A stretch of 32,000 nucleotides of DNA, taken from positions 450,001-482,000 of the forward strand of contig MGBH01000001.1 of the NCBI GenBank assembly GCA_001790095.1. Direction: 5' to 3'. This document shows, piece after piece, positions 572 to 27,633 of this stretch (the first letter of the stretch is position 1; the number at the start of each line of letters is the position of its first letter). A model generated the notes under the pieces. It did not search any database. It was given only the letters and a program-made list of their open reading frames with translations, and was not told the origin of the DNA. Made by a program: the position numbers and the translations under genes. Source of the DNA: Candidatus Saccharimonadota bacterium. GTDB taxonomy: Bacteria > Patescibacteriota > Microgenomatia > UBA1406 > GWC2-37-13.

Positions 572-1936
572 ATGACGAGAGGGAATATAAGCATCCGGTA
601 CTATTACTGGCTTAGCATAGAATTTGTAAAGAAACACTCAAAACTCATTTTTTTAAGTGCGCTTATTTCTACGATTTTTATTGTAAGCTCTATCACTATT
701 TCTCCCTACTTGATAACCTTACTATCACCTCAAAATACGGTCGTTGGTATGGTTGGTTCTTACACTATTGACACCTTGCCAGAGGAAGTTTTATCTAAAG
801 TCTCAAATGGACTTGTCTATATTAATGAGAGTGGAAAGATCGTACCGATACTTGCCGAATCATGGGAATTGTTAAAAGGTGGAAATACGTATCGATTCCA
901 TTTAAAAAAAAATGTCTTGCTTGACGATGGGTCGTTTTTTGTAGCAAAAGATATTAATTATTCGTTCAAAGACGTGGAAGTACAAGTAGTGGGTGATTAT
1001 GTGATTGAATTTACCTTAAAAAAACCTCTTGCCACTTTTCCCATTTATTTGACAAAACCTGTTATTAAATATCCATATATTGGAATAGGCGGGTTATACA
1101 AAGTCAATCGCATGAAGCAAAAATACGACAAAATATCAGAGATTAGTCTCACTCCAAACAAGAAGGATCTTCCTAGACTAACCTACAAATTTTTCGCTAA
1201 TGAGCTGGAGATGATAAGCGCTTATAAGCTTGGACAAATAAGTCAATTCACGATACAAAAAAAAAGCGTGGCAGATGTTTTTCTCTCGTGGAAAAATACA
1301 AAAGTGGAAAAAATAGTCGACTATTCGAATCTACTTACCCTTTTTTTTAACTTTAACAACCCATTTCTTAAAGAAAAAGAGGTTCGATCCGCCATTGAAT
1401 TAAGTATAGATCGAAGTAAATTTGCAGAGGTAGGAGTAATGGCTAAAAGTTCAATACCTCCCTCATCCTGGGCCTACAATAAAGATTTGAAAGATCAGGT
1501 GTTTGATAAAGAACTTGCGCAAAAGATAATACGAAAGTACAAAACCGGTACTGATTCGGCAAAACTTAATTTTAATACTTTCTACGACTATCTTGATATT
1601 GGGGGCGATATAAATAGCAGTCTCAATGATATAGGAATCTCAACCAACCTTAATGTCATTTCTTATTCTAATTCTAATGATTTTGACGTCATGCTTGCGT
1701 TTCTCAAAATTCCAACTGATCCGGACCAATACTATTACTGGCACTCAACTCAAAATTTATCAACTCTTACTGGGTATCGAAACCTTAAGGTAGATAAGCT
1801 GCTTGAAGAAGGAAGAGGAAGTTTTGATCAAGGCGATAGAATAAAATATTATATGGATCTGCAGAAAAACCTAGACGAAGATAATGCAGCAGTATTTTTA
1901 TACTTCCCCTACTCATATACTATAAAACGGAAGTAA
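572..1936 (+). CDS. ABC-transporter family-5 (peptide/nickel type) solute-binding protein-like, N-terminal membrane anchor, no cognate permease or ATPase in window
   Basis: The motif ILAESWELLKGGNTYRFHLKKNVLLDDGSFFVAKDINYSF matches the SBP_bac_5 core (lAesWe.s.dg.tytF.Lrk.v.f.DG.p..a.Dv.ys). N-terminal hydrophobic helix present. ATG start, TAA stop at 1934-1936. Confidence 0.7.
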   Translation: MTRGNISIRYYYWLSIEFVKKHSKLIFLSALISTIFIVSSITISPYLITLLSPQNTVVGMVGSYTIDTLPEEVLSKVSNGLVYINESGKIVPILAESWELLKGGNTYRFHLKKNVLLDDGSFFVAKDINYSFKDVEVQVVGDYVIEFTLKKPLATFPIYLTKPVIKYPYIGIGGLYKVNRMKQKYDKISEISLTPNKKDLPRLTYKFFANELEMISAYKLGQISQFTIQKKSVADVFLSWKNTKVEKIVDYSNLLTLFFNFNNPFLKEKEVRSAIELSIDRSKFAEVGVMAKSSIPPSSWAYNKDLKDQVFDKELAQKIIRKYKTGTDSAKLNFNTFYDYLDIGGDINSSLNDIGISTNLNVISYSNSNDFDVMLAFLKIPTDPDQYYYWHSTQNLSTLTGYRNLKVDKLLEEGRGSFDQGDRIKYYMDLQKNLDEDNAAVFLYFPYSYTIKRK

Positions 1937-1955
1937 TTGTTATAATCGTATAAAT

Positions 1956-2036
1956 GCCCGGGTGGTGAAATGGCATACACGCAGGACTTAAAATCCTGTG
2001 ACGAAAGTCGTGAGGGTCCGACTCCCTCCCCGGGCA
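1956..2036 (+). tRNA. tRNA-Leu (anticodon TAA), type II with long variable arm; CCA not encoded
   Basis: Hand-folded cloverleaf. Acceptor GCCCGGG/CCCGGGC, anticodon stem CAGGA/TCCTG with loop CTTAAAA, variable arm TGACGAAAGTCGT, T stem GAGGG/CCCTC. The T-loop reads TCCGACT, which is unusual (see findings). Confidence 0.88.
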
Positions 2037-2045
2037 CAACACAAT

Positions 2046-2062
2046 AAATTGCTGCGCAATTT
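2046..2062. terminator. short hairpin between convergent tRNA-Leu and NUDIX gene (possible bidirectional terminator)
   Basis: AAATTGC-tgc-GCAATTT forms a 7-bp stem. There is no clear U-tract, so support is weak. Confidence 0.25.
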
Positions 2063-2079
2063 GAGCGCTGTTGAAACGC

Positions 2080-2523
2080 TTAAACCAAGGGTTTATTGCG
2101 TTTCACTTCGAGAAGTTTTGACGCTTCCAGCGCAATATCGTAGGCAAGAGGAAGAGTTTTCAAATTTTTTATTTCCTCGATAGTAAACCAATCAAAAGCC
2201 ATGGCTTCATGATTCAGAATAATGGGTTTGTCTAAAGAAGTAAGCTCACATATATAACATATAAGAAGACCGTGCCATGTATGTCTCAAGGGAGAAAATA
2301 TGCGTGGAATAAGATCTTTAATCGTAATTTCAACCTGAAGTTCTTCTTTAACTTCTCTTTTTAAAGCAGTTATTGGATCTTCGCCAAACTCGATCCCTCC
2401 GCCTGGAAAGTTCCAACAATGCCCAAAAGATTTATCTTCAATATCAATTTCCTTTCTCTTGGTTAACAAAAATCTATCTTTATTGTGAATGACCGCTATG
2501 GCAACAGGAACAATTTTATTCAT
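2080..2523 (-). CDS. NUDIX hydrolase (MutT-like)
   Basis: Complete Nudix box GGGIEFGEDPITALKREVKEELQVE (GX5EX7REUXEEXGU). 147 aa. The ATG lies 4 nt downstream of the tRNA-Arg 3' end. Confidence 0.88.
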   Translation of the reverse strand: MNKIVPVAIAVIHNKDRFLLTKRKEIDIEDKSFGHCWNFPGGGIEFGEDPITALKREVKEELQVEITIKDLIPRIFSPLRHTWHGLLICYICELTSLDKPIILNHEAMAFDWFTIEEIKNLKTLPLAYDIALEASKLLEVKRNKPLV

Positions 2524-2527
2524 GGTG

Positions 2528-2601
2528 TGACCCGGGTGAGACTTGAACTCACAACCTACTCCTTAGAAGGGAGTTGCTCTATCCAATTGAGCTACCAGGT
2601 C
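2528..2601 (-). tRNA. tRNA-Arg (anticodon TCT)
   Basis: The reverse complement folds as GACCTGG / GCTC-AATTGGATA-GAGC / ACTCC-CTTCTAA-GGAGT / AGGTT / GTGAG-TTCAAGT-CTCAC / CCGGGTC-A. Confidence 0.9.
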
Positions 2602-2608
2602 AGTCTTG

Positions 2609-2680
2609 AGCCTGGACGCGGATTTGGACCGCGGACCTGCTGTTTACAAAACAGCTGCTCTACCGCTGAGCTATCCAGGC
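2609..2680 (-). tRNA. tRNA-Thr (anticodon TGT)
   Basis: The reverse complement folds as GCCTGGA / GCTC-AGCGGTA-GAGC / GCTGT-TTTGTAA-ACAGC / AGGTC / CGCGG-TCCAAAT-CCGCG / TCCAGGC-T. The T-loop has C where U55 is expected. Confidence 0.85.
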
Positions 2681-2693
2681 TATAACAACAAGG

Positions 2694-2774
2694 TGCCCGG
2701 GAGAGGACTTGAACCTCCACGGATTGCTCCACAGCCTCCTCAAGACTGCGCGTATACCATTTCGCCACCCGGGC
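2694..2774 (-). tRNA. tRNA-Leu (anticodon GAG), type II
   Basis: The reverse complement folds as GCCCGGG...CAGTC-TTGAGGA-GGCTG, long variable arm TGGAGCAATCCGTG, T arm GGAGG-TTCAAGT-CCTCT, acceptor CCCGGGC-A. Confidence 0.9.
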
Positions 2775-2784
2775 CGTATAGTTT

Positions 2785-2850
2785 AAATCAGTTAAAATCA
2801 GATTTTGCACAATACAATTTTTACCTATTTTAACTGATTTCAACTGATTT
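2785..2850. repeat. inverted repeat built from four copies of an AATCAG/CTGATT 9-mer, between ruvB stop and the tRNA cluster
   Basis: Left arm AAATCAGTTAAAATCAG (2785-2801) is complementary to right arm CTGATTTCAACTGATTT (2834-2850), 16 of 17 positions, with a 32-nt AT-rich loop. Confidence 0.6.
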
Positions 2851-2871
2851 TAACCGCATTGTAAGATTATA

Positions 2872-3864
2872 TCAAACCAGCCTCTCTTGTTCTAATGGTT
2901 TTTCGGAGTTTTTAATCTTTAGATGTTTTAATGCTTTGGGTGTTAAAATTCTACCACGTGGGGTTTTTTTGATAAGGTTAAGCTGAAGAAGATATGGTTC
3001 AATAAACTCTTCAACTGTCTGACGATCTTCAGAAAGAGAAAGTGATATGGTTTCGATACCTGTTGGAATATTCTGATATTTATCTCCAACTAAACGCAAA
3101 TACTTAATGTCAATGTCAGTAAGTCCCATTTCGTCAATCCCGAGCAGGATAAATAGTTCATCTAAAAGATTGTTTGTAATTGATTTGTATTTATTTACCT
3201 CAATTACATCACGTGCTCGTTTTAAGATACGATTTGCAATCCGGGGCGTCCGTCTAGATCGTTTAGCTATATGATGTGCTGAAGTCTCATCAAGGGGTAC
3301 ATTGAGGATTGAGGCCGCTCTTTTTATGATCAAAATCATCTCATCTTCATTATAAAAATCAAGGCGCAGGATAAGCCCAAATCTGTCTCTCAGGGGTCCA
3401 GATAAAAGAGCAAGTTTTGTCGTTGCACCAACTATGGTGATCTTAGGGATTGGCAAGCGGACAGTGCGCGCACTAGGACCTTTGCCTATGATTATATCCA
3501 GCGCATAATCCTCAATTACAGGATAGAGCATCTCCTCAACTGCTTTTGGTAATCTATGGATCTCGTCAATAAATAAAATGTCGTTTTGTTTTAAGTTAGT
3601 AAGTATTGCAGCTAAATCTCCAACTTTGGTAATCGCCGCACCTGATGTAATCTTTATGTCTCCTTTTAATTCATTGGCAACGATAAAAGCAAGAGTAGTC
3701 TTCCCGATACCAGGTGGGCCATATAGCAGTATATGTTCAGACGCAATACCTCGTTTATTTACCGCATCAAGAAAGAGTTTAAGGGTCCTAACTACTTTTT
3801 GCTGCCCAATGTACTCGTTAAGCTTATGTGGTCTCAAATTAAGGTCATTTTTTTTGTTTTCCAT
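2872..3864 (-). CDS. ruvB: Holliday junction branch-migration ATPase RuvB
   Basis: LRPHKLNEYIGQ, Walker A GPPGIGKTT, FIDEIHRL and the RTPRIANRILKR sensor region are typical RuvB. 330 aa. Confidence 0.95.
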   Translation of the reverse strand: MENKKNDLNLRPHKLNEYIGQQKVVRTLKLFLDAVNKRGIASEHILLYGPPGIGKTTLAFIVANELKGDIKITSGAAITKVGDLAAILTNLKQNDILFIDEIHRLPKAVEEMLYPVIEDYALDIIIGKGPSARTVRLPIPKITIVGATTKLALLSGPLRDRFGLILRLDFYNEDEMILIIKRAASILNVPLDETSAHHIAKRSRRTPRIANRILKRARDVIEVNKYKSITNNLLDELFILLGIDEMGLTDIDIKYLRLVGDKYQNIPTGIETISLSLSEDRQTVEEFIEPYLLQLNLIKKTPRGRILTPKALKHLKIKNSEKPLEQERLV

Positions 3865-8387: not shown

Positions 8388-8461
8388 GGGCCTATAGCTC
8401 AATTGGCTTGAGCGTCGGATTTGCATTCCGAAGGTTAGGGGTTCGAGTCCCCTTAGGTCCA
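8388..8461 (+). tRNA. tRNA-Ala (anticodon TGC)
   Basis: Folds as GGGCCTA / GCTC-AATTGGCTT-GAGC / TCGGA-TTTGCAT-TCCGA / AGGTT / AGGGG-TTCGAGT-CCCCT / TAGGTCC-A. Carries the G3:U70 wobble pair that is the AlaRS identity element. Confidence 0.92.
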
Positions 8462-8650: not shown

Positions 8651-11630
<2,980 letters not shown>

Positions 11631-11735: not shown

Positions 11736-13106
11736 ATGAAATACCGTCGTATCCTCTTAGTAAATCCACCTAAGGTTGATCAGGGGGGATATAAACCAAG
11801 CCCGCTTGGACTCCTTTATCTTGCTGCTTATTTGCAAAAACATTGTCCTCAAGCTCAAGTACGAGTTACAGATGGAGCTATACAAGGAAAAGAGGCAGTA
11901 CTCCAGACTTGTCGATCTTTTAGGCCTGATCTTATCGGTATATCTATTCTTACTCCAGGTAGACATCAAGGTCTTCATATAGCAACAGAGATAAAAAGAT
12001 TACTTCCTCGATCCAAGACCATTTTTGGCAATGTGCACGCAACCATTATGTGGAAACAATTGATGTCGCAGTACAAACAAGTAGACTATATCGCAAGAGG
12101 AGAGGGGGAACAAACGTTGTATGAACTTGTAGTTGGAAAACCTACTTCTTCAATAAAGGGTTTGGTATGGAGATCTAGAAAAAAAATTCTGAAGAACATT
12201 GATCGTCCTATGATCGTAGATCTTAACAAACTTCCCTTTCCAGCATGGGATCTTGTTGATCCGCTTATGTATCCTGCCCGAGGAGAAGGTTTGATCAATG
12301 ATATAGATCTGGCAAAAGAAGTAAGATTTCCAGTTATTTTTTCTCGCGGTTGCATGGGTGCGTGTACATTTTGTTCAAGTTGGATGATATGGAAAGGGTA
12401 TCGATACCGCAATGGTAAACTAGTTGCGGATGAAATTGAGATGTTGTGCAAAAGGTATAATGCAAAACATTTTGTATTTCAAGACGATACACTGACTGGA
12501 AATCAAAAAGAAATAATAAGCTTCTGTAAAGAAATAATAAAGCGTAAACTCAAGGTTGCAATATACGGTACTACACGAGTAGACAAAGTTAATCTTAAAA
12601 TGCTCAATTATATGAAGAAAGCTGGATTTTATGAATTGAGTTTTGGTATTGAGTCTGGTTCACCTGCCATGCTTCTTAAAATTAATAAACGAACTGATAT
12701 ACAGCTTATTAAAAAAGCAGTAGACCTTACTAGAAAAGCTCATATTAAAGTAAATGCACTTATGATGTATGGACTTCCAAGAGAGACAAATGAAGATAGA
12801 ATACTATCAAAAAAACTTATTAAAAATATTAACCCCGATGAGGTTGGAACTGTTGGGGCTGTGTGGATTTTTCCTGGGACTGCCTTGTATGAGCAGGCAA
12901 AACAAGCCAAGCTACTTGACGATTCGTTCTGGCTTGGACCAAAACCATACTATATATATAGGGGAGGAATCGGCGAAGATAAAATTGACAGAAAACAGCA
13001 AATAGTCGATGAAATACATCTTTATTTTTCACATACGCGTGCATATAAAATGTGGCACTATGTCACCTCACATGCATTACGAACACTGCATAAATTACAA
13101 AATTAA
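11736..13106 (+). CDS. B12-binding-domain radical SAM protein (class B rSAM)
   Basis: N-terminal cobalamin-binding-type Rossmann region (ILLVNPP...PLGLLYLAAYL...DLIGIS). Radical SAM cluster motif CMGACTFC (CX3CX2C) followed by FGIESGS. 456 aa. Confidence 0.85.
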   Translation: MKYRRILLVNPPKVDQGGYKPSPLGLLYLAAYLQKHCPQAQVRVTDGAIQGKEAVLQTCRSFRPDLIGISILTPGRHQGLHIATEIKRLLPRSKTIFGNVHATIMWKQLMSQYKQVDYIARGEGEQTLYELVVGKPTSSIKGLVWRSRKKILKNIDRPMIVDLNKLPFPAWDLVDPLMYPARGEGLINDIDLAKEVRFPVIFSRGCMGACTFCSSWMIWKGYRYRNGKLVADEIEMLCKRYNAKHFVFQDDTLTGNQKEIISFCKEIIKRKLKVAIYGTTRVDKVNLKMLNYMKKAGFYELSFGIESGSPAMLLKINKRTDIQLIKKAVDLTRKAHIKVNALMMYGLPRETNEDRILSKKLIKNINPDEVGTVGAVWIFPGTALYEQAKQAKLLDDSFWLGPKPYYIYRGGIGEDKIDRKQQIVDEIHLYFSHTRAYKMWHYVTSHALRTLHKLQN

Positions 13107-24227: not shown

Positions 24228-25442
24228 ATGTACATGTCCACCTATAAATTAGAAAAACACCTCGCTACCCGCCTCAAGAACATGACCTGCAGCGCAATAC
24301 GAGACATGCTTAAACAAGCGGGCAGGCCTGGATTTATTTCCCTTGGAGGAGGATATCCTGATCCTGAAAGTTTTCCAATAGACATTATTCGCTCTTTACG
24401 TATTTTGGTCAAGCGAAAATACAAAAATTCGATTTACCAGTATGGAAGAAGCGAAGGGCTTATTCAACTTTTTGAACAACTTATTCCCTTTTTTAAACGA
24501 ACCAATCGAAGTATCAAAGCTACTCCTCACACTATCTCCATTACTACTGGCTCCCAACAAGCTTTAGCGATACTTGCTATGATGTTTATTGATCCTGGAG
24601 ATTATATTGCAGTTGAAACCCCAACATATTTAGGCGCACTTCAAGCTTTTAATCCATTTCAACCACGCTATATCGAACTGGAGGTAGACGATGAGGGAAT
24701 TGTCCCAGACAAATTGGACAAAACTATAAGCAAATATCCAAATATTAAATTCATCTATATTATTCCGACATTCCAAAATCCAACAGGCAAAACTCTGTCT
24801 CTTGACCGAAGAGTTCGTATTGCAAAGATACTAAGGAAACATGATGTAATAGCTGTAGAGGACGATCCTTATAGTGAACTTAGATATGAAGCAGAGCCTA
24901 TACCTTCTCTACAATCTCTTATCCCCGAAAAAGTCATTCATCTTTTTACTTTTTCTAAGACGTTTGCACCTGATTTTAGGATTGGAGGAATTGTTGCTCC
25001 ACCTGAAGTCTGTGAAACCGCAACAATGATCAAACAAGGTCTTGATTTATATACTAGTAACTATAATCAAGCTATGGTCACTGAATATCTTGCAGGAGGA
25101 CATCTTGAACCACATCTCAAAAAAATAATTAATCTATATAAACCACGACGAGATCTTATGATGTCTCTTATCGATACATATTTTCCGCTCGAAATCAGTC
25201 ATACAAACCCCCTGGGTGGTATGTTTGTCTGGGCTTATAGTAACAATTCAAAAACTATACATATCAATACTATTTTGGATGAGGCGTTAAAGAAGAATGT
25301 TGGCTTTGTTCCGGGCAATCCCTTTTTTGCAAGGAAAAAAAATTCGCCTTTTTCCATGCGCTTAAATTTTACGAACCAAAGTAATAGCAATATAGAGAAA
25401 GGCATTAAAATCCTGGGGCAAATCCTTCATAAATATTTATAA
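24228..25442 (+). CDS. PLP-dependent aminotransferase, class I/II fold (LysN / 2-aminoadipate aminotransferase-like)
   Basis: ISLGGGYPDPESFP, YG.SEG, NPTG, DDPYSELRY and FSKTFAPDFRIGG (PLP lysine) motifs. Start candidates are GTG 24225, ATG 24228 and ATG 24234. Confidence 0.85.
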   Translation: MYMSTYKLEKHLATRLKNMTCSAIRDMLKQAGRPGFISLGGGYPDPESFPIDIIRSLRILVKRKYKNSIYQYGRSEGLIQLFEQLIPFFKRTNRSIKATPHTISITTGSQQALAILAMMFIDPGDYIAVETPTYLGALQAFNPFQPRYIELEVDDEGIVPDKLDKTISKYPNIKFIYIIPTFQNPTGKTLSLDRRVRIAKILRKHDVIAVEDDPYSELRYEAEPIPSLQSLIPEKVIHLFTFSKTFAPDFRIGGIVAPPEVCETATMIKQGLDLYTSNYNQAMVTEYLAGGHLEPHLKKIINLYKPRRDLMMSLIDTYFPLEISHTNPLGGMFVWAYSNNSKTIHINTILDEALKKNVGFVPGNPFFARKKNSPFSMRLNFTNQSNSNIEKGIKILGQILHKYL

Positions 25443-25499
25443 ACTTCTTTTAGATTCTATATCTAATATAGTATAATCGGAAAATATACCTATATAAAT

Positions 25500-25787
25500 A
25501 TGAAAGAATGCTGTGGACCAAAGATATGGATTAAATTTTTTAAGGCTGTTGCCGATCGCCATCGTCAAAGGATTTTATCACATATCAGTGTACATAAATC
25601 TATAAACGCAGGTGACATCGAAAAAAAAGTTGGATTGTCCCAACCCACCATCTCTCATCATCTCAAGATGCTTATTGACGCTGGGATTATAATTGGCGTA
25701 AGAAAGGGAAGAGAAATCCACTATTCACTAAATCAAAAAAACATATCTTCATGTTGTACAGGATTTATGGAGAAGATGTTGAAATAA
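25500..25787 (+). CDS. ArsR/SmtB-family metal(loid)-responsive transcriptional repressor
   Basis: 95 aa. Winged-helix core ADRHRQRILSHI...GDIEKKVGLSQPTISHHLKMLIDAGII...GREIHYSLN. Vicinal cysteines at Cys4-Cys5 and Cys85-Cys86. No CXC site in helix 3. Confidence 0.88.
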   Translation: MKECCGPKIWIKFFKAVADRHRQRILSHISVHKSINAGDIEKKVGLSQPTISHHLKMLIDAGIIIGVRKGREIHYSLNQKNISSCCTGFMEKMLK

Positions 25788-25812
25788 TACTACTTTGATC
25801 TTGTTTTATATA

Positions 25813-25842
25813 TTGACATATTTAAATGTATCGATATATAAT
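25813..25842 (+). promoter_or_regulatory. consensus promoter downstream of the ArsR gene
   Basis: TTGACA (25813-25818), 18-nt spacer, TATAAT (25837-25842). The palindrome TATCGATA (25829-25836) lies within the spacer and is a possible operator. Confidence 0.55.
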
Positions 25843-25848
25843 ATTTAT

Positions 25849-25977
25849 ATGTCCGACTACGCTCATGTTCGTCTCGAGACTTACATCTTCGCAGACGAAA
25901 TATTCGCTTCGACGGACTCAAGAATCCGTAATTGCTCATTTAACAGTTCACAAACGGATTCTAGAGAAAGGGGGTGA
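25849..25977 (+). CDS. tentative leaderless 42-aa ORF (alternatively a structured 5' leader of the Cys-rich peptide gene)
   Basis: The ATG lies 6 nt after the -10 box. Translation: MSDYAHVRLETYIFADEIFASTDSRIRNCSFNSSQTDSRERG. Its TGA (25975-25977) lies inside the SD of the next gene, 4 nt before that ATG. The same RNA can form GUCCG/CGGAC, UUCGUCU/AGACGAA and AGAAUCCGU/ACGGAUUCU helices. Confidence 0.3.
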   Translation: MSDYAHVRLETYIFADEIFASTDSRIRNCSFNSSQTDSRERG

Positions 25978-25981
25978 TACT

Positions 25982-26158
25982 ATGTTTTTTGCAAAACACT
26001 TTAAAGATCTGAAAGTTTCAATGACCAATAAAGGAGAAGAACTTCTTATCTCAGTAAAAGGAGATAAGGAAAAGCTTGCCCACCTTGAGAAAAAACTTGG
26101 CGCTGTAAAAGAGCTTTGTTGTGGGTGTTGTGATGAAGAAGAGGAAGGCTGTTGTTAA
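25982..26158 (+). CDS. 58-aa Cys-rich peptide (C-terminus CCGCCDEEEEGCC), candidate metal(loid)-binding peptide
   Basis: Strong SD AAGGGGGTGAT ends 4 nt before the ATG. Translation: MFFAKHFKDLKVSMTNKGEELLISVKGDKEKLAHLEKKLGAVKELCCGCCDEEEEGCC. An intrinsic terminator follows. The upstream in-frame extension in the ORF track (from 25826) would start inside the promoter. Confidence 0.65.
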   Translation: MFFAKHFKDLKVSMTNKGEELLISVKGDKEKLAHLEKKLGAVKELCCGCCDEEEEGCC

Positions 26159-26164
26159 GAATAA

Positions 26165-26194
26165 GCAAAAGACTTAGCTAGCAAGTCTTTTTGC
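26165..26194 (+). terminator. intrinsic terminator after the Cys-rich peptide gene
   Basis: GCAAAAGACTT-agctagc-AAGTCTTTTTGC: a 9-11 bp stem running into a T-run. Confidence 0.5.
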
Positions 26195-26195
26195 T

Positions 26196-26220
26196 CTAGT
26201 ACGCTTCGGAAGTGTACTAG
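26196..26220. terminator. second hairpin between convergent genes
   Basis: CTAGTACGCTT-cgg-AAGTGTACTAG: an 11-bp stem including one G-T pair. No U-tract. Confidence 0.3.
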
Positions 26221-26286
26221 ACTGTTGATAAAGCCTAAACTAATAAATATCAAGAGATAGTAACAAAATATGAAGAATTTGTTGCT

Positions 26287-26967
26287 TCAAATTTTTTGAA
26301 ATCTTATCAAAGAAAGTGGTTGTTCGGTAAATGGATTATTCGAGATATTTATATATAGTCCCTGGGGTTTCATACTTTTTGCTTTTTCAATAGCTCTTGG
26401 CCAAAATTCTCTTTGCCACGCTCTTGGGATTATAAAATATGCTACACCTCCCCCAATTAACACTCTATCAAGCTCTGCTAATGCTTGAAGAGATAAGTCA
26501 ATAGGGTATTCACCCGTAGGACACTTTCTGCCATATGGAGGATTGACTATGGCTATTTTTTGTGACGCATCTTTAAGAGGTAGACGTTTTGCGTCCCATT
26601 CTATAAAATGTTGAGGCTGTCCATTATATTTATATTTTCTTCTGAAGCGTTTAAGTCCTTTATACGGATTTTTATATTCATGATGATATTTTATATCTCC
26701 TGTAATCGTTGATATTCCTTTGTAATCAAAAAAATTGGTCATCGAACCTGGGCCTCCAAAAGGTATAAGAATAGTATCGCCTTTATTAATATCATTAAAT
26801 CGAGTCATTTCATTGAAGATAAGCTCCAGTTTTTGTGTACCCAAACAAAATTCCCGAAGGCGTTTTGGAAAATATGCTTTATGAGCGTTTAGCGGTAATG
26901 GTATCCCTTCGCCAAGATGTAAGGTCATAAAATTTGAAAAAAGTATATAGCCACCAGGGACTCCCAT
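26287..26967 (-). CDS. SAM-dependent methyltransferase with NPPY motif (UPF0020/RNA m2G- or N6-adenine-type), start uncertain
   Basis: Motif I-like ILIPFGGPGS and motif IV IVNPPYG about 70 aa later. The first 6 codons (MGVPGG) are encoded by a tRNA-Lys remnant, so Met14 (ATG 26928) is an alternative start. Confidence 0.65.
   Translation of the reverse strand: MGVPGGYILFSNFMTLHLGEGIPLPLNAHKAYFPKRLREFCLGTQKLELIFNEMTRFNDINKGDTILIPFGGPGSMTNFFDYKGISTITGDIKYHHEYKNPYKGLKRFRRKYKYNGQPQHFIEWDAKRLPLKDASQKIAIVNPPYGRKCPTGEYPIDLSLQALAELDRVLIGGGVAYFIIPRAWQREFWPRAIEKAKSMKPQGLYINISNNPFTEQPLSLIRFQKI
26949..26966 (-). pseudogene. internally deleted tRNA-Lys remnant (5' GGG fused to the last 15 nt of the tRNA), preceded by a second copy of the tRNA leader motif
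   Basis: AGCCACCAGGGACTC at 26949-26963 is identical to 27066-27080 (3' T-arm plus acceptor of tRNA-Lys). The leader 14-mer TCCTCAGGGTAAAC occurs at 26991-27004 and 27150-27163. CGACGAA-GGG junctions are present in both units. Confidence 0.5.
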
Positions 26968-27063: not shown

Positions 27064-27136
27064 TGAGCCACCAGGGACTCGAACCCTGAACCACCTCCTT
27101 AAGAGGGAGATGCTCTACCAGTTGAGCTAGTGGCCC
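27064..27136 (-). tRNA. tRNA-Lys (anticodon CTT)
   Basis: The reverse complement folds as GGGCCAC / GCTC-AACTGGTA-GAGC / TCTCC-CTCTTAA-GGAGG / TGGTT / CAGGG-TTCGAGT-CCCTG / GTGGCTC-A. Confidence 0.9.
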
Positions 27137-27198: not shown

Positions 27199-27477
27199 TT
27201 ATAAGGGTAACCCCCTATCTTCATCAGCGTTCAAAATCAGTTCTAGTTTCTTTTTTCTATTCCAACCTTTGATTTCAGCTTCCCGTTTTGCTGCTTCAGA
27301 ATGAGTATTATATAGCTCGCTAAATACTAAAATCACAGGGATTTTACTCTTTAGAGATTTTGCACCTTTTTTTAAATTGTGTTCCTTTATTCGTCGCTCA
27401 ATATCGGTTGTTATCCCTGTATAAAGTGACTTATCTCTACATCTGACTATATATAAGAACCAATCGTTTTGCTTCAT
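27199..27477 (-). CDS. GIY-YIG nuclease family protein (UPF0213/YhbQ-like, stand-alone domain)
   Basis: FLYIVRCRDKSLYTGITTDIERRIKEHN...REAEIKGWNRKKK shows the GIY-(10)-YIG spacing, the conserved Arg/Glu and the K.W.R.KK tail. 92 aa. Confidence 0.85.
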   Translation of the reverse strand: MKQNDWFLYIVRCRDKSLYTGITTDIERRIKEHNLKKGAKSLKSKIPVILVFSELYNTHSEAAKREAEIKGWNRKKKLELILNADEDRGLPL

Positions 27478-27559: not shown

Positions 27560-27633
27560 TGCGCTCGGGGTGACTTGAACACCCAACCCTTGGTTCCGAA
27601 GACCAATGCTCTATCCAATTGAGCTACGAGCGC
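27560..27633 (-). tRNA. tRNA-Arg (anticodon TCG)
   Basis: The reverse complement folds as GCGCTCG / GCTC-AATTGGATA-GAGC / TTGGT-CTTCGGA-ACCAA / GGGTT / GGGTG-TTCAAGT-CACCC / CGAGCGC-A. Confidence 0.9.

Follow-up and report, generated by a model that had tools for sequence, protein, structure and literature searches.

What is the use of a 58-residue protein whose last 13 residues hold six cysteines, and why is it encoded directly behind a gene of the ArsR/SmtB repressor family? The question is raised by a locus of Candidatus Roizmanbacteria, a member of the candidate phyla radiation (CPR), lying in positions 450,001 to 482,000 of contig MGBH01000001.1; this whole stretch of 32,000 nucleotides is what we call the window, and coordinates refer to it unless another locus is named. 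A preliminary description of the locus had proposed a minimal module of a sensor and a thiol-rich effector under ArsR control. As an architecture this is well supported, every comparative prediction on which it could have failed having been borne out, and a conserved palindromic operator over the promoter of the peptide gene can now be added to it. All functional statements that we make about the module are inferences from sequence; among the functions considered, we lean, at chances slightly above even, towards an inducible thiolate sponge directed against a thiophilic metal or metalloid, which would make the module a functional analogue of SmtB-SmtA. The parts of the locus, in the order in which they lie, are these.

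25449-25477, plus strand: promoter-like site 5' of arsR, TTTAGA-17-TATAAT, a 10/12 match with no operator copy.
25500-25787, plus strand: gene of a putative repressor of the ArsR/SmtB family, 95 amino acids (PF01022, NF033788), with Cys4/Cys5 and Cys85/Cys86 as candidate sensory thiols.
25806-25841: palindromic putative operator with 18-nt arms that are 83% complementary; its core, ATTGACATATTTAAATGTATCGAT, lies at 25812-25835.
25813-25842, plus strand: predicted sigma-70 promoter of the peptide gene, with the -35 box TTGACA at 25813-25818 and the -10 box TATAAT at 25837-25842.
25851-25966, plus strand: leader insertion of about 116 nt with two predicted hairpins, not present in the other loci.
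25968-25978, plus strand: extended Shine-Dalgarno (SD) sequence AAGGGGGTGAT, 3 nt ahead of the ATG at 25982.
25982-26116, plus strand: residues 1-45 of the peptide gene, a conserved core that is predicted to fold (AlphaFold2 model, codon-position differences).
26117-26158, plus strand: residues 46-58 of the peptide gene and its stop codon, a tail predicted to be disordered (model confidence, 102 homologues).
26164-26221, plus strand: two adjoining stem-loops after the stop codon, the probable end of the transcript (fold energy, inverted-repeat scan).

The arsR gene and the short open reading frame (ORF) stand in tandem on the plus strand. The ORF spans 25982-26158 with its stop codon at 26156-26158, it ends in CCGCCDEEEEGCC, and it is preceded by the SD sequence, just as had been read before. 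A word-seeded search found 12 homologues of the 58-residue protein (46-76% identity), an exhaustive hidden Markov model (HMM) search of 1.84 billion cluster representatives gave 32 matches, about 27 of them proteins of 41-91 residues, and a profile search of 5.8 billion clusters matched 54 clusters. Long, K/E-rich HMM matches (P0013, P0016, P0019, P0040) were compositional and were set aside, and P0012, seemingly a divergent homologue, was left out because it is a frameshifted copy from a long-read contig full of indels (L005). Together with ORFs read from the fetched loci, whose starts were trimmed by a heuristic, the database matches make up a set of 102 distinct homologues, so that the search for relatives that the preliminary description had proposed was answered amply. 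In the conserved core the pairwise differences at codon positions 1, 2 and 3 are 0.345, 0.14 and 0.628, respectively, and the codons of conserved cysteines switch between TGT and TGC among loci, the terminal pairs being kept while their codons drift. Both observations argue for purifying selection at the protein level, and on this substitution pattern we conclude that the ORF is a true gene.

Its start is supported no less by comparison. All homologues begin at the methionine equivalent to 25982, behind an SD sequence of the AGGAGGTGA type; the GenBank model (OGK62437.1, A2334_05350) has 97 residues and starts about 39 codons too early, and the models of other callers, at 103-110 residues, run through the leader (window 25826-26158). 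The exact 58-residue product is not found in a collection of 15 billion proteins; gene callers carry the ORF further 5', across the leader. The start at 25982 is favored over the public models by the SD sequence and by more than 100 homologues. Because small ORFs are under-called in databases, the size and taxonomic range of the family are lower bounds. The named carrier genomes are metagenome-assembled genomes (MAGs) of Microgenomates, Roizmanbacteria or Patescibacteria; one further MAG bears the label Gammaproteobacteria, yet the genes around its module are those of the Microgenomates loci, and it is thus probably mis-binned.

The peptide gene does not occur on its own. Each of the 15 distinct loci found through the peptide has an arsR gene directly upstream on the same strand, and an operator-based scan of metagenome contigs returned 54 peptide loci, 51 of them with arsR directly upstream, one (L104) with an insert of 300 nt in between, and two cut off by the end of the contig. 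The pairing is strictly linked wherever the upstream sequence suffices, and the co-occurrence with this ArsR subtype that the preliminary description had asked about holds throughout, apart from the loci at contig ends. Beyond the pair, little is shared: when 261 flanking proteins from 70 loci were clustered, no family was present in more than seven loci, from which it follows that the two genes form a self-contained, autonomous module. The recurrent flanking families reflect local synteny, except for a nitroreductase (six loci) and an unannotated protein of 341 residues (four loci), both of which sit immediately downstream on the same strand. The nitroreductase-family gene, of 211 codons, follows the peptide gene after about 40-100 nt (L008 5216-5851, L013 5289-5921, L015 5253-5885; also L054, L067 and L078), it is the sole recurrent functional neighbour of the module, and it may be co-transcribed with it. 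A frameshift-riddled long-read contig (L005 2432-4180) carries operators at about 2802 and 3914, two broken copies of the peptide gene and a broken arsR; either the module is duplicated in tandem here or the assembly is at fault.

The sensor belongs to the ArsR family, scoring 38.5 bits against PF01022 (cutoff 22) and 75.7 bits against NF033788 (cutoff 55); its relatives in the PDB include CgArsR, CzrA and SmtB (E values of 1e-7 to 1e-8), and OGK62436.1 of Candidatus Roizmanbacteria RIFOXYB2_FULL_38_10 is identical to it (100%). Its 95 residues (MKECCGPKIW...SINAGDI...LSQPTISHHLKML...NISSCCTGFMEKMLK) contain four cysteines only, Cys4/Cys5 in the N-terminal arm (MKECCG) and Cys85/Cys86 in helix alpha5 (SSCCTG). 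The vicinal pairs at both termini, and the replacement of the helix-3 CXC motif by SINAGDI, were thus correctly noted before; residues 34-40 occupy the position at which type 1 ArsRs carry that alpha3 motif. To see which thiols are conserved, we combined database matches of 50-66% identity with copies read from the loci into a set of 48 distinct sequences. The alpha5 pair is present in 47 of them, within the consensus I-S/x-x-C-C-x-G-F, and the N-terminal arm carries CC in 17, CxC in 13 and a single cysteine in 12 (42/48 together); the six sequences without an N-terminal cysteine lack it mostly through contig ends. An extra cysteine stands six to seven residues past the alpha5 pair in nine of the 48 (e.g., CCGGFMRKFC), and one between alpha1 and the recognition helix is rare (six). 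The conserved candidate ligand set is therefore best described as two vicinal cysteines in the dimerisation helix together with one or more thiols of wandering position, and by analogy the subtype matches the "2+1 thiolate" arrangement seen in known As(III) sites. In alignments to CzrA and SmtB, Cys85/Cys86 fall in the middle of alpha5, with one half of the classical alpha5 site on either side, so that they would lie near the dimer dyad.

This layout differs from those described. As(III) sites have been reported at Cys32/34/37 in the R773 repressor, Cys95/96/102 in AfArsR, Cys15/16 together with Cys55' in CgArsR and Cys41/80/82 in ArArsR, and SpArsR responds to methylarsenite (MAs(III)) with two cysteines (PMC11868830). 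The window ArsR has no cysteine between alpha1 and the recognition helix and so lacks the CXCXXC pattern of type 1 (R773, Cys32/34/37). Nor does one follow Cys85/86, where the type 2 pattern as described for AfArsR has a third cysteine a few residues downstream of the pair. Of the type 3 pattern (CgArsR) it shows the N-terminal CC, and the GGCGP insertion that carries Cys55 has no counterpart in the alignment. As far as sequence allows a verdict, cysteines at the N-terminus plus alpha5 correspond to none of the described ArsR site types.

The DNA between the two genes is what joins them. Twenty-five bases after the arsR stop codon stands the promoter, TTGACA-18-TATAAT, a 12/12 match to the sigma-70 consensus that bears out the promoter reported earlier; overall, the region shows no enrichment of promoter-like sites (three found versus 4.2 expected). 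This promoter is embedded in the 36-nt palindrome, in which 15 of 18 positions pair. The operator core covers the -35 box together with the spacer, stopping 1 nt short of the -10 box, which the outer arm of the palindrome (to 25841) overlaps. In the aligned arsR-peptide intergenic regions the block ATATTGACATATTGAAATGTATCGATATATAAT is the best-conserved DNA of the locus. The core reads ATTGACAyATTn·AAATnnnTCrAT, a 12+12 inverted repeat that is perfect in one locus (L021); its left arm is the -35 box, the -10 box follows directly, and both hexamers are kept across loci. Of 21 related loci, 20 hold a single copy of this core, which in every case stands between arsR and the peptide gene; in L006 it is a one-base variant. 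Within the 32-kb window the core pattern is found at 25812-25835 alone, with no match in 100 shuffles. An imperfect inverted repeat thus lies over the putatively regulated promoter, as is typical of ArsR-type operators. No copy of it is found in the window 5' of arsR, which has its own, weaker promoter-like site. Because the pattern stands only between the two genes, arsR itself would not be autoregulated through this putative operator.

Scanning all metagenome contigs with the pattern, which has 18 fixed bases, gave 104 matches that we sorted by context. The order arsR, operator, peptide accounts for 51, and contig end, operator, peptide for two; in L104 the 300 nt are inserted between arsR and the operator, and in two loci (L037, L060) the operator is followed by another tiny ORF. 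Sixteen matches stand ahead of ArsRs of other types that possess a classical CVC or CAC motif in alpha3, four adjoin divergent arsR genes, and 28 have no ArsR nearby, about the chance level for 18 fixed bases. The 16 canonical loci (L022, L035, L036, L044, L051, L052, L065, L071, L077, L080, L088, L089, L091, L095, L121 and L124) come from organisms of higher GC content, some of their alpha3 motifs having the form CCx4-5DRVCACD, and downstream of these arsR genes lie ArsP-like permeases, cysteine-rich thioredoxin-like proteins, and flavin adenine dinucleotide (FAD) oxidoreductases or flavin mononucleotide (FMN) reductases. The recognition helix of the ArsRs that share the operator reads LSQPT(I/L)SHH(L/M)K, and the 24-nt operator may be widely common to the clade with the LSQPTISHHLK helix. 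Since the same operator precedes canonical CVC/CAC arsR genes, a point that the preliminary description had not made, the DNA-binding mode would be that of bona fide ArsR repressors, and this is good indirect evidence that the window ArsR is a functional DNA-binding repressor of the LSQPT(I/L)SHH(L/M)K clade.

The effector has two unlike halves, of which the conserved core, predicted to fold, had not been noted before. Residues ~10-45 of the family follow the pattern DLxxxxENxGxxLVITxxGDKEKIxxLEKKLxAxxxL, with N16, G18, L21, G27, K38, A41 and L45 nearly invariant, and the AlphaFold2 (AF2) monomer, built on an alignment of 31 sequences, shows strands at 11-16 and 21-26 and a helix at 29-48, with a mean predicted local distance difference test (pLDDT) score of 81. 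Block means reach 91-94 for residues 11-40 and fall below 50 for residues 53-56, the last ~10 residues being predicted to be disordered. The tail varies in length and composition and is always made up of Cys, Asp/Glu and Gly, sometimes with His or Lys (CDCGCDCGCGCC, CCGCCNDEGGCC, CDCGDEEGGGCCGCC, CCDADGKCDCGCDCGCGCC and CCSSEGCGHSDEKGCCN are samples). It contains CC in 100 of the 102 homologues, and in 91 the pair closes the tail, followed by no more than two residues; the number of tail cysteines has a median of 5 and a range of 0-9, as compared to six in the window peptide. At the other end of the protein, 79 of the 102 have at least two His or Cys among their first ~10 residues (e.g., MHGHM.., MMHGHF.., MCHCG.., MFHSGFMHHCC..), and in two loci (L050, L098) the main cysteine cluster has moved there (MFSCCKDGEDCCKD...), the C-terminus retaining only LCCD or LCCE.

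No family of known proteins accounts for this combination. The window peptide matches nothing in Pfam and NCBIfam at E<=10, matches found for the 31 members (such as KH, DUF2067, NikR_C and CopK) are sub-threshold noise, and none of the 31 matches a metallothionein model at E<=0.1. A profile search of the PDB returned designed ferredoxin-like or coiled-coil peptides at E>=6e-4, which we do not consider significant, and a Foldseek comparison with the PDB gave nothing at E<=1e-3. Every source that names a member calls it a "hypothetical protein". The suggestion that the peptide might be a metallothionein or belong with ArsD is accordingly not borne out as to family identity: there is no sequence match, for ArsD none in Pfam, and the predicted fold is a beta-hairpin and helix with a disordered tail. 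ArsD, by contrast, is defined by a thioredoxin-like fold with Cys12/13/18 and by its partner ArsA. By sequence and modelled fold the effector family is unnamed and distinct from SmtA/BmtA, MymT and ArsD.

Two loci reduce the effector further. In L037 (760-795, plus strand) the same ArsR and operator precede MSLLGGGACSC, 11 residues ending in CSC, and in L060 (1188-1247, minus strand) they precede MMRSNKRSIEKFGGGGSCC, 19 residues ending in CC; a second ORF in the latter locus (921-1022, minus strand) encodes MSKIQMLGGGCGGGKKMIGGDECDSCGSGGCSC, a Gly/Cys peptide of 33 residues. The mini-ORFs of L037 and L060 each have an SD sequence and a canonical terminator and replace the 58-residue family. 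From these bare peptides, a Gly-linked terminal dithiol appears to be the irreducible element of the effector.

How, then, would the pair operate? In the reading that we prefer, an ArsR dimer sits on the 24-bp palindrome that contains the -35 box and keeps the consensus promoter shut. A thiophilic inducer, most likely one of the soft metals or metalloids As(III)/Sb(III), Cu(I), Cd, Hg or Zn, would bind the all-cysteine site of the repressor, formed by the alpha5 Cys-Cys and one or two N-terminal cysteines, and the loaded repressor would leave the DNA. The consensus promoter and the extended SD sequence could then drive high-level synthesis of a cytosolic protein of ~58 residues, a hairpin/helix core bearing a flexible, acidic, Gly-rich tail with four to six cysteines that ends in a vicinal pair, often combined with an N-terminus rich in His, Cys or Met. 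The tail would chelate the inducer, its free concentration would fall and repression would be restored, a negative feedback as in SmtB-SmtA. The variable number and spacing of the cysteines, their arrangement as CC or CxC among acidic residues and histidines, their relocation to the N-terminus in some members and the existence of stand-alone peptides argue for a chelating tail over a fixed redox or catalytic motif. Clues to the ligand diverge: the all-thiolate "2+1" sensor and the kinship in DNA recognition with arsenic-type ArsRs point, by analogy, to As(III)/Sb(III), and the His, Met, Asp and Glu that decorate the effector speak for Cu(I), Cd, Zn or Ni. Hg(II), too, has classical ligands in C-terminal vicinal cysteines, as in MerA.

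Several observations weigh against this sponge. The surroundings of the module do not consistently include a metal transporter, an ars gene or another metal gene, the exceptions being one locus next to Zur-ZnuABC (L007) and one next to a canonical ArsR-Trx-ArsP operon. The latter (L009) has a canonical ArsR-Trx_3-ArsP_1 operon with PadR-glutaredoxin and rhodanese genes adjoining the module; there (1558-3149, and likewise in L010 and L011) a second ArsR with the motif GNHCVCEL, a Thioredoxin_3 and an ArsP_1 gene are followed by YgaP-like, PadR-glutaredoxin and rhodanese genes, so that two ArsR systems stand side by side. Genes of thiol, redox or electrophile stress lie near several modules instead, namely AhpC/Redoxin, a DsbD-thioredoxin fusion, PMSR (Msr) and a glyoxalase in L006, and a cupredoxin, glyoxalases, MarR, DoxX and HxlR in L020, as well as the nitroreductase in six loci. 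A strongly conserved folded core would be superfluous in a simple chelator and hints at a partner or at oligomerisation. The Asp, Glu and His residues of the tail are not arsenic ligands. Finally, trapping As(III) in the cytosol is not among the established strategies of bacteria (PMC11868830).

Set beside known systems, the proposed logic of the sponge is familiar. Control of a bacterial metallothionein by an ArsR/SmtB repressor is the arrangement of SmtB-SmtA in Synechococcus and of BxmR-BmtA. AzuR-NmtA is a further precedent for an ArsR/SmtB-controlled metallothionein (PMC8790569). In all of these, as here, a repressor of this family adjoins a small (~55-60 residues), Cys-rich cytosolic protein; the SmtB-SmtA group shares with the module an inverted-repeat operator at the effector promoter and the proposed sequence of sensing, derepression and sequestration. 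The module differs in that its effector is unrelated to SmtA and BmtA, with a hairpin/helix core and a disordered tail in place of their zinc-finger-like cluster fold, in that its genes stand in tandem whereas smtB and smtA are divergent, and in that its sensor site is all-cysteine (N-terminus plus alpha5) in contrast to the alpha3N or alpha5 sites with His/Asp/Glu of the SmtB group. With the As(III)-responsive ArsRs (AfArsR, CgArsR, ArArsR, SpArsR) the sensor shares the fold, a recognition helix of the LSQPTISHHLK type and a third ligand that wanders, and the module operator is found ahead of canonical CVC-type arsR genes too. Like AfArsR and SpArsR it has a cysteine pair in the C-terminal helix (Cys85/86 being putative equivalents of Cys95/96 of AfArsR), and like CgArsR it has a vicinal pair in the N-terminal arm; unlike AfArsR and CgArsR, the window ArsR has no third cysteine after the alpha5 pair and no equivalent of Cys55, and it controls no ars gene.

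The tail, for its part, has functional look-alikes. Short, flexible metal-binding segments are known from Hpn, with its EEGCC motifs, from the C-terminal tails of SlyD and HypB and from the C-terminal Cys-Cys of MerA. MymT, another small protein of this kind, is copper-induced (PMC11672702). The module tail resembles these in being short, flexible and rich in Cys, His, Asp/Glu and Gly, and their vicinal cysteines bind soft metals; it differs in having no sequence homology to them and in being carried on a dedicated, conserved scaffold of 45 residues under an ArsR-type regulator. Among the papers searched, none ties CPR bacteria to a metallothionein or to an ArsR-linked, Cys-tailed small protein. 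The regulatory logic is already known, and what would set the module apart, as judged from its sequence, is an unnamed effector family, an undescribed layout of the sensory site and its occurrence in the CPR lineage.

Alternatively, one could envision that the signal is not a metal. Redox sensing through vicinal cysteines, which the preliminary description had not raised, is by analogy to RexT a serious alternative: the ArsR would sense oxidants, electrophiles or sulfane sulfur through vicinal or inter-site disulfides or adducts, and the small protein would be a sacrificial or buffering thiol, a protein-encoded substitute for low-molecular-weight thiols. We regard this as possible, at clearly less than even chances. 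RexT, an ArsR-family sensor of H2O2, works through a vicinal Cys-Cys disulfide (PMC8960804; PMC11672702), and the RexT of Nostoc resembles the module both in taking its input through such a pair and in having a thiol protein as its target (PMC8960804). Redox and electrophile genes do recur near the module (L006, L009 and L020, besides the six same-strand nitroreductases). However, these neighbours are present in a minority of loci and follow local synteny. The tails, moreover, look like chelators, variable in the number and spacing of their cysteines, with CxC and CC among Asp/Glu/His and with N-termini rich in His and Met, and have no fixed CxxC redox motif placed in a fold. RexT itself has its pair in alpha3, where the module has pairs in alpha5 and at the N-terminus, and its target is a canonical thioredoxin, where the target here has no redox fold.

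A bolder extension of the sponge, rated by us as a tentative, rather unlikely idea, is that the functional unit is a gene-encoded vicinal dithiol. In these bacteria of reduced genome, products from scaffold-plus-tail proteins of 58 residues down to the bare peptides of 11 and 19 (L037, L060) would be ribosomal stand-ins for thiols of the phytochelatin or glutathione type, made on demand under a thiolate-sensing ArsR with an undescribed N-terminus-plus-alpha5 site, and would capture As(III), methylarsenite, Hg(II) or Cu(I).

The conservation of the core invites a different role for the effector, that of a metallochaperone or co-sensor. The core would dock on the ArsR, a transporter encoded elsewhere or a metalloenzyme, and the tail would hand over or remove metal, so that the protein would traffic metal or tune the response rather than act as a store. 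ArsD and the MerA tails are precedents for such a hand-off by vicinal cysteines, and a core that is far better conserved than the tail and confidently folded in the AF2 model suggests a specific interaction surface. Yet no candidate partner is conserved in the neighbourhoods of the 70 loci, the core is dispensed with in L037 and L060, and neither fold nor sequence relates the protein to ArsD, CopZ/HMA or other known chaperones; we think this role improbable.

The small size of the products and their Cys-rich C-termini, together with the Gly-Gly runs ahead of the cysteines in L037 and L060, would also suit the precursor of a ribosomally synthesized and post-translationally modified peptide (RiPP) or bacteriocin, with the tail as the modified part. 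This we hold to be very improbable: no modifying enzyme, protease or exporter is conserved nearby, none of the recurrent families scanned is a RiPP enzyme, the "leader" would have to be a conserved folded domain, and control by a thiolate-sensing ArsR is not what one would expect. An attenuation leader that senses the charging of Cys-tRNA ahead of hairpins, for which one might cite a short ORF that closes with a series of Cys codons and has stem-loops behind it, is hardly credible, as in the window and in most loci the gene that follows is convergent, an order that contradicts it, and the N-terminal 45 residues are under protein-level selection and confidently predicted to fold; a toxin-antitoxin pair was rejected on gene order and context.

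The stretch between promoter and SD sequence, which the preliminary description had given as a 130-nt segment, is indeed there, measuring about 125 nt from the end of the -10 box (25842) to the start of the SD sequence (25968), but it has no conserved role. Its insertion forms predicted hairpins at 25851-25917 and 25917-25966 with a fold z score of only -1.7, the segment is in no other locus, where the distance from -10 box to ATG is usually ~25-50 nt, and the leaders of L017 and L020 are different and longer. No match to Rfam was found in 25400-26300 at E<=10. A riboswitch or other structured leader was thus rejected as a conserved element on these three grounds (Rfam, z score, absence from homologous loci), and a repeat or miniature inverted-repeat transposable element (MITE) has against it that no second copy exists in the window or in 125 loci. 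By these comparisons the leader is a lineage-specific insertion and not a conserved RNA element. Unrelated insertions have been gained repeatedly by the intergenic DNA of the module in different lineages, among them a GC-rich hairpin segment in L014 (4846-4940), a leader of ~85 nt in L017 (4883-4980) and the 300-nt insert of L104, which sits 5' of the operator; the 116-nt insert of the window fits this pattern. The leader also contains a 42-codon ORF, MSDYAHVRLETYIFADEIFASTDSRIRNCSFNSSQTDSRERG, at 25849-25977, whose ATG coincides with the predicted transcription start ~7 nt after the -10 box and whose TGA (25975-25977) falls inside the SD sequence that precedes the peptide; such an upstream ORF might be leaderless and coupled to the main one, or it might be there by chance.

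At the other end of the gene, the terminator reported earlier is partly borne out by two strong hairpins, at 26164-26195 and 26195-26221 (-24.4 kcal/mol, z = -3.4). A consensus terminator scan did not call them on the plus strand because they are without a clean trailing T-run. The next gene, a methyltransferase (26287-26967, minus strand), is convergent to the peptide gene. The 30 scanned window ORFs of at least 90 codons are housekeeping genes, with no arsB/acr3, arsC or P-type ATPase among them, in agreement with what had been noted before, and no ArsA was found among the scanned ORFs either; each of the unscanned ORFs of that size overlaps either the 23S rRNA gene or an annotated ORF longer than itself. 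Elsewhere in the window, a tRNA gene (8388-8461) precedes the 23S rRNA gene (8653-11626), which has no adjoining 16S or 5S rRNA gene in the window and is directly followed by a B12-binding radical SAM gene (11736-13106). An ORF of 92 codons with a GIY-YIG nuclease domain (27199-27477, minus strand) lies between tRNA genes at 27064-27136 and 27560-27633, and a similar ORF of 95 codons is found ~1.1 kb from the module in L018 (1683-1967).

To our knowledge, only a handful of bacterial metallothionein-like families have been recognized, none of them from the CPR, and we know of next to no work on the metal and thiol physiology of these bacteria. The module is a compact and portable pair of sensor and effector, made up of a 95-residue repressor, a 24-bp operator and a 58-residue effector; the geometry of its ArsR sensory site appears to lie outside the characterised types, and its effector represents an unnamed family whose members gene callers overlook or give a wrong start. 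If the ligand is arsenic, inducible chelation of arsenite in the cytosol would have its first bacterial instance; copper, cadmium or zinc as the ligand would make the effector a new class of metallothionein, and oxidants as the signal would make it a new protein-encoded thiol buffer. Should the idea of a gene-encoded dithiol prove true, it would add a new class to the metal(loid) or thiol defences of bacteria, and the ArsR site would be a fifth type. Any of these outcomes would aid the annotation of hundreds of CPR genomes, and the module may also provide a part for biosensors.

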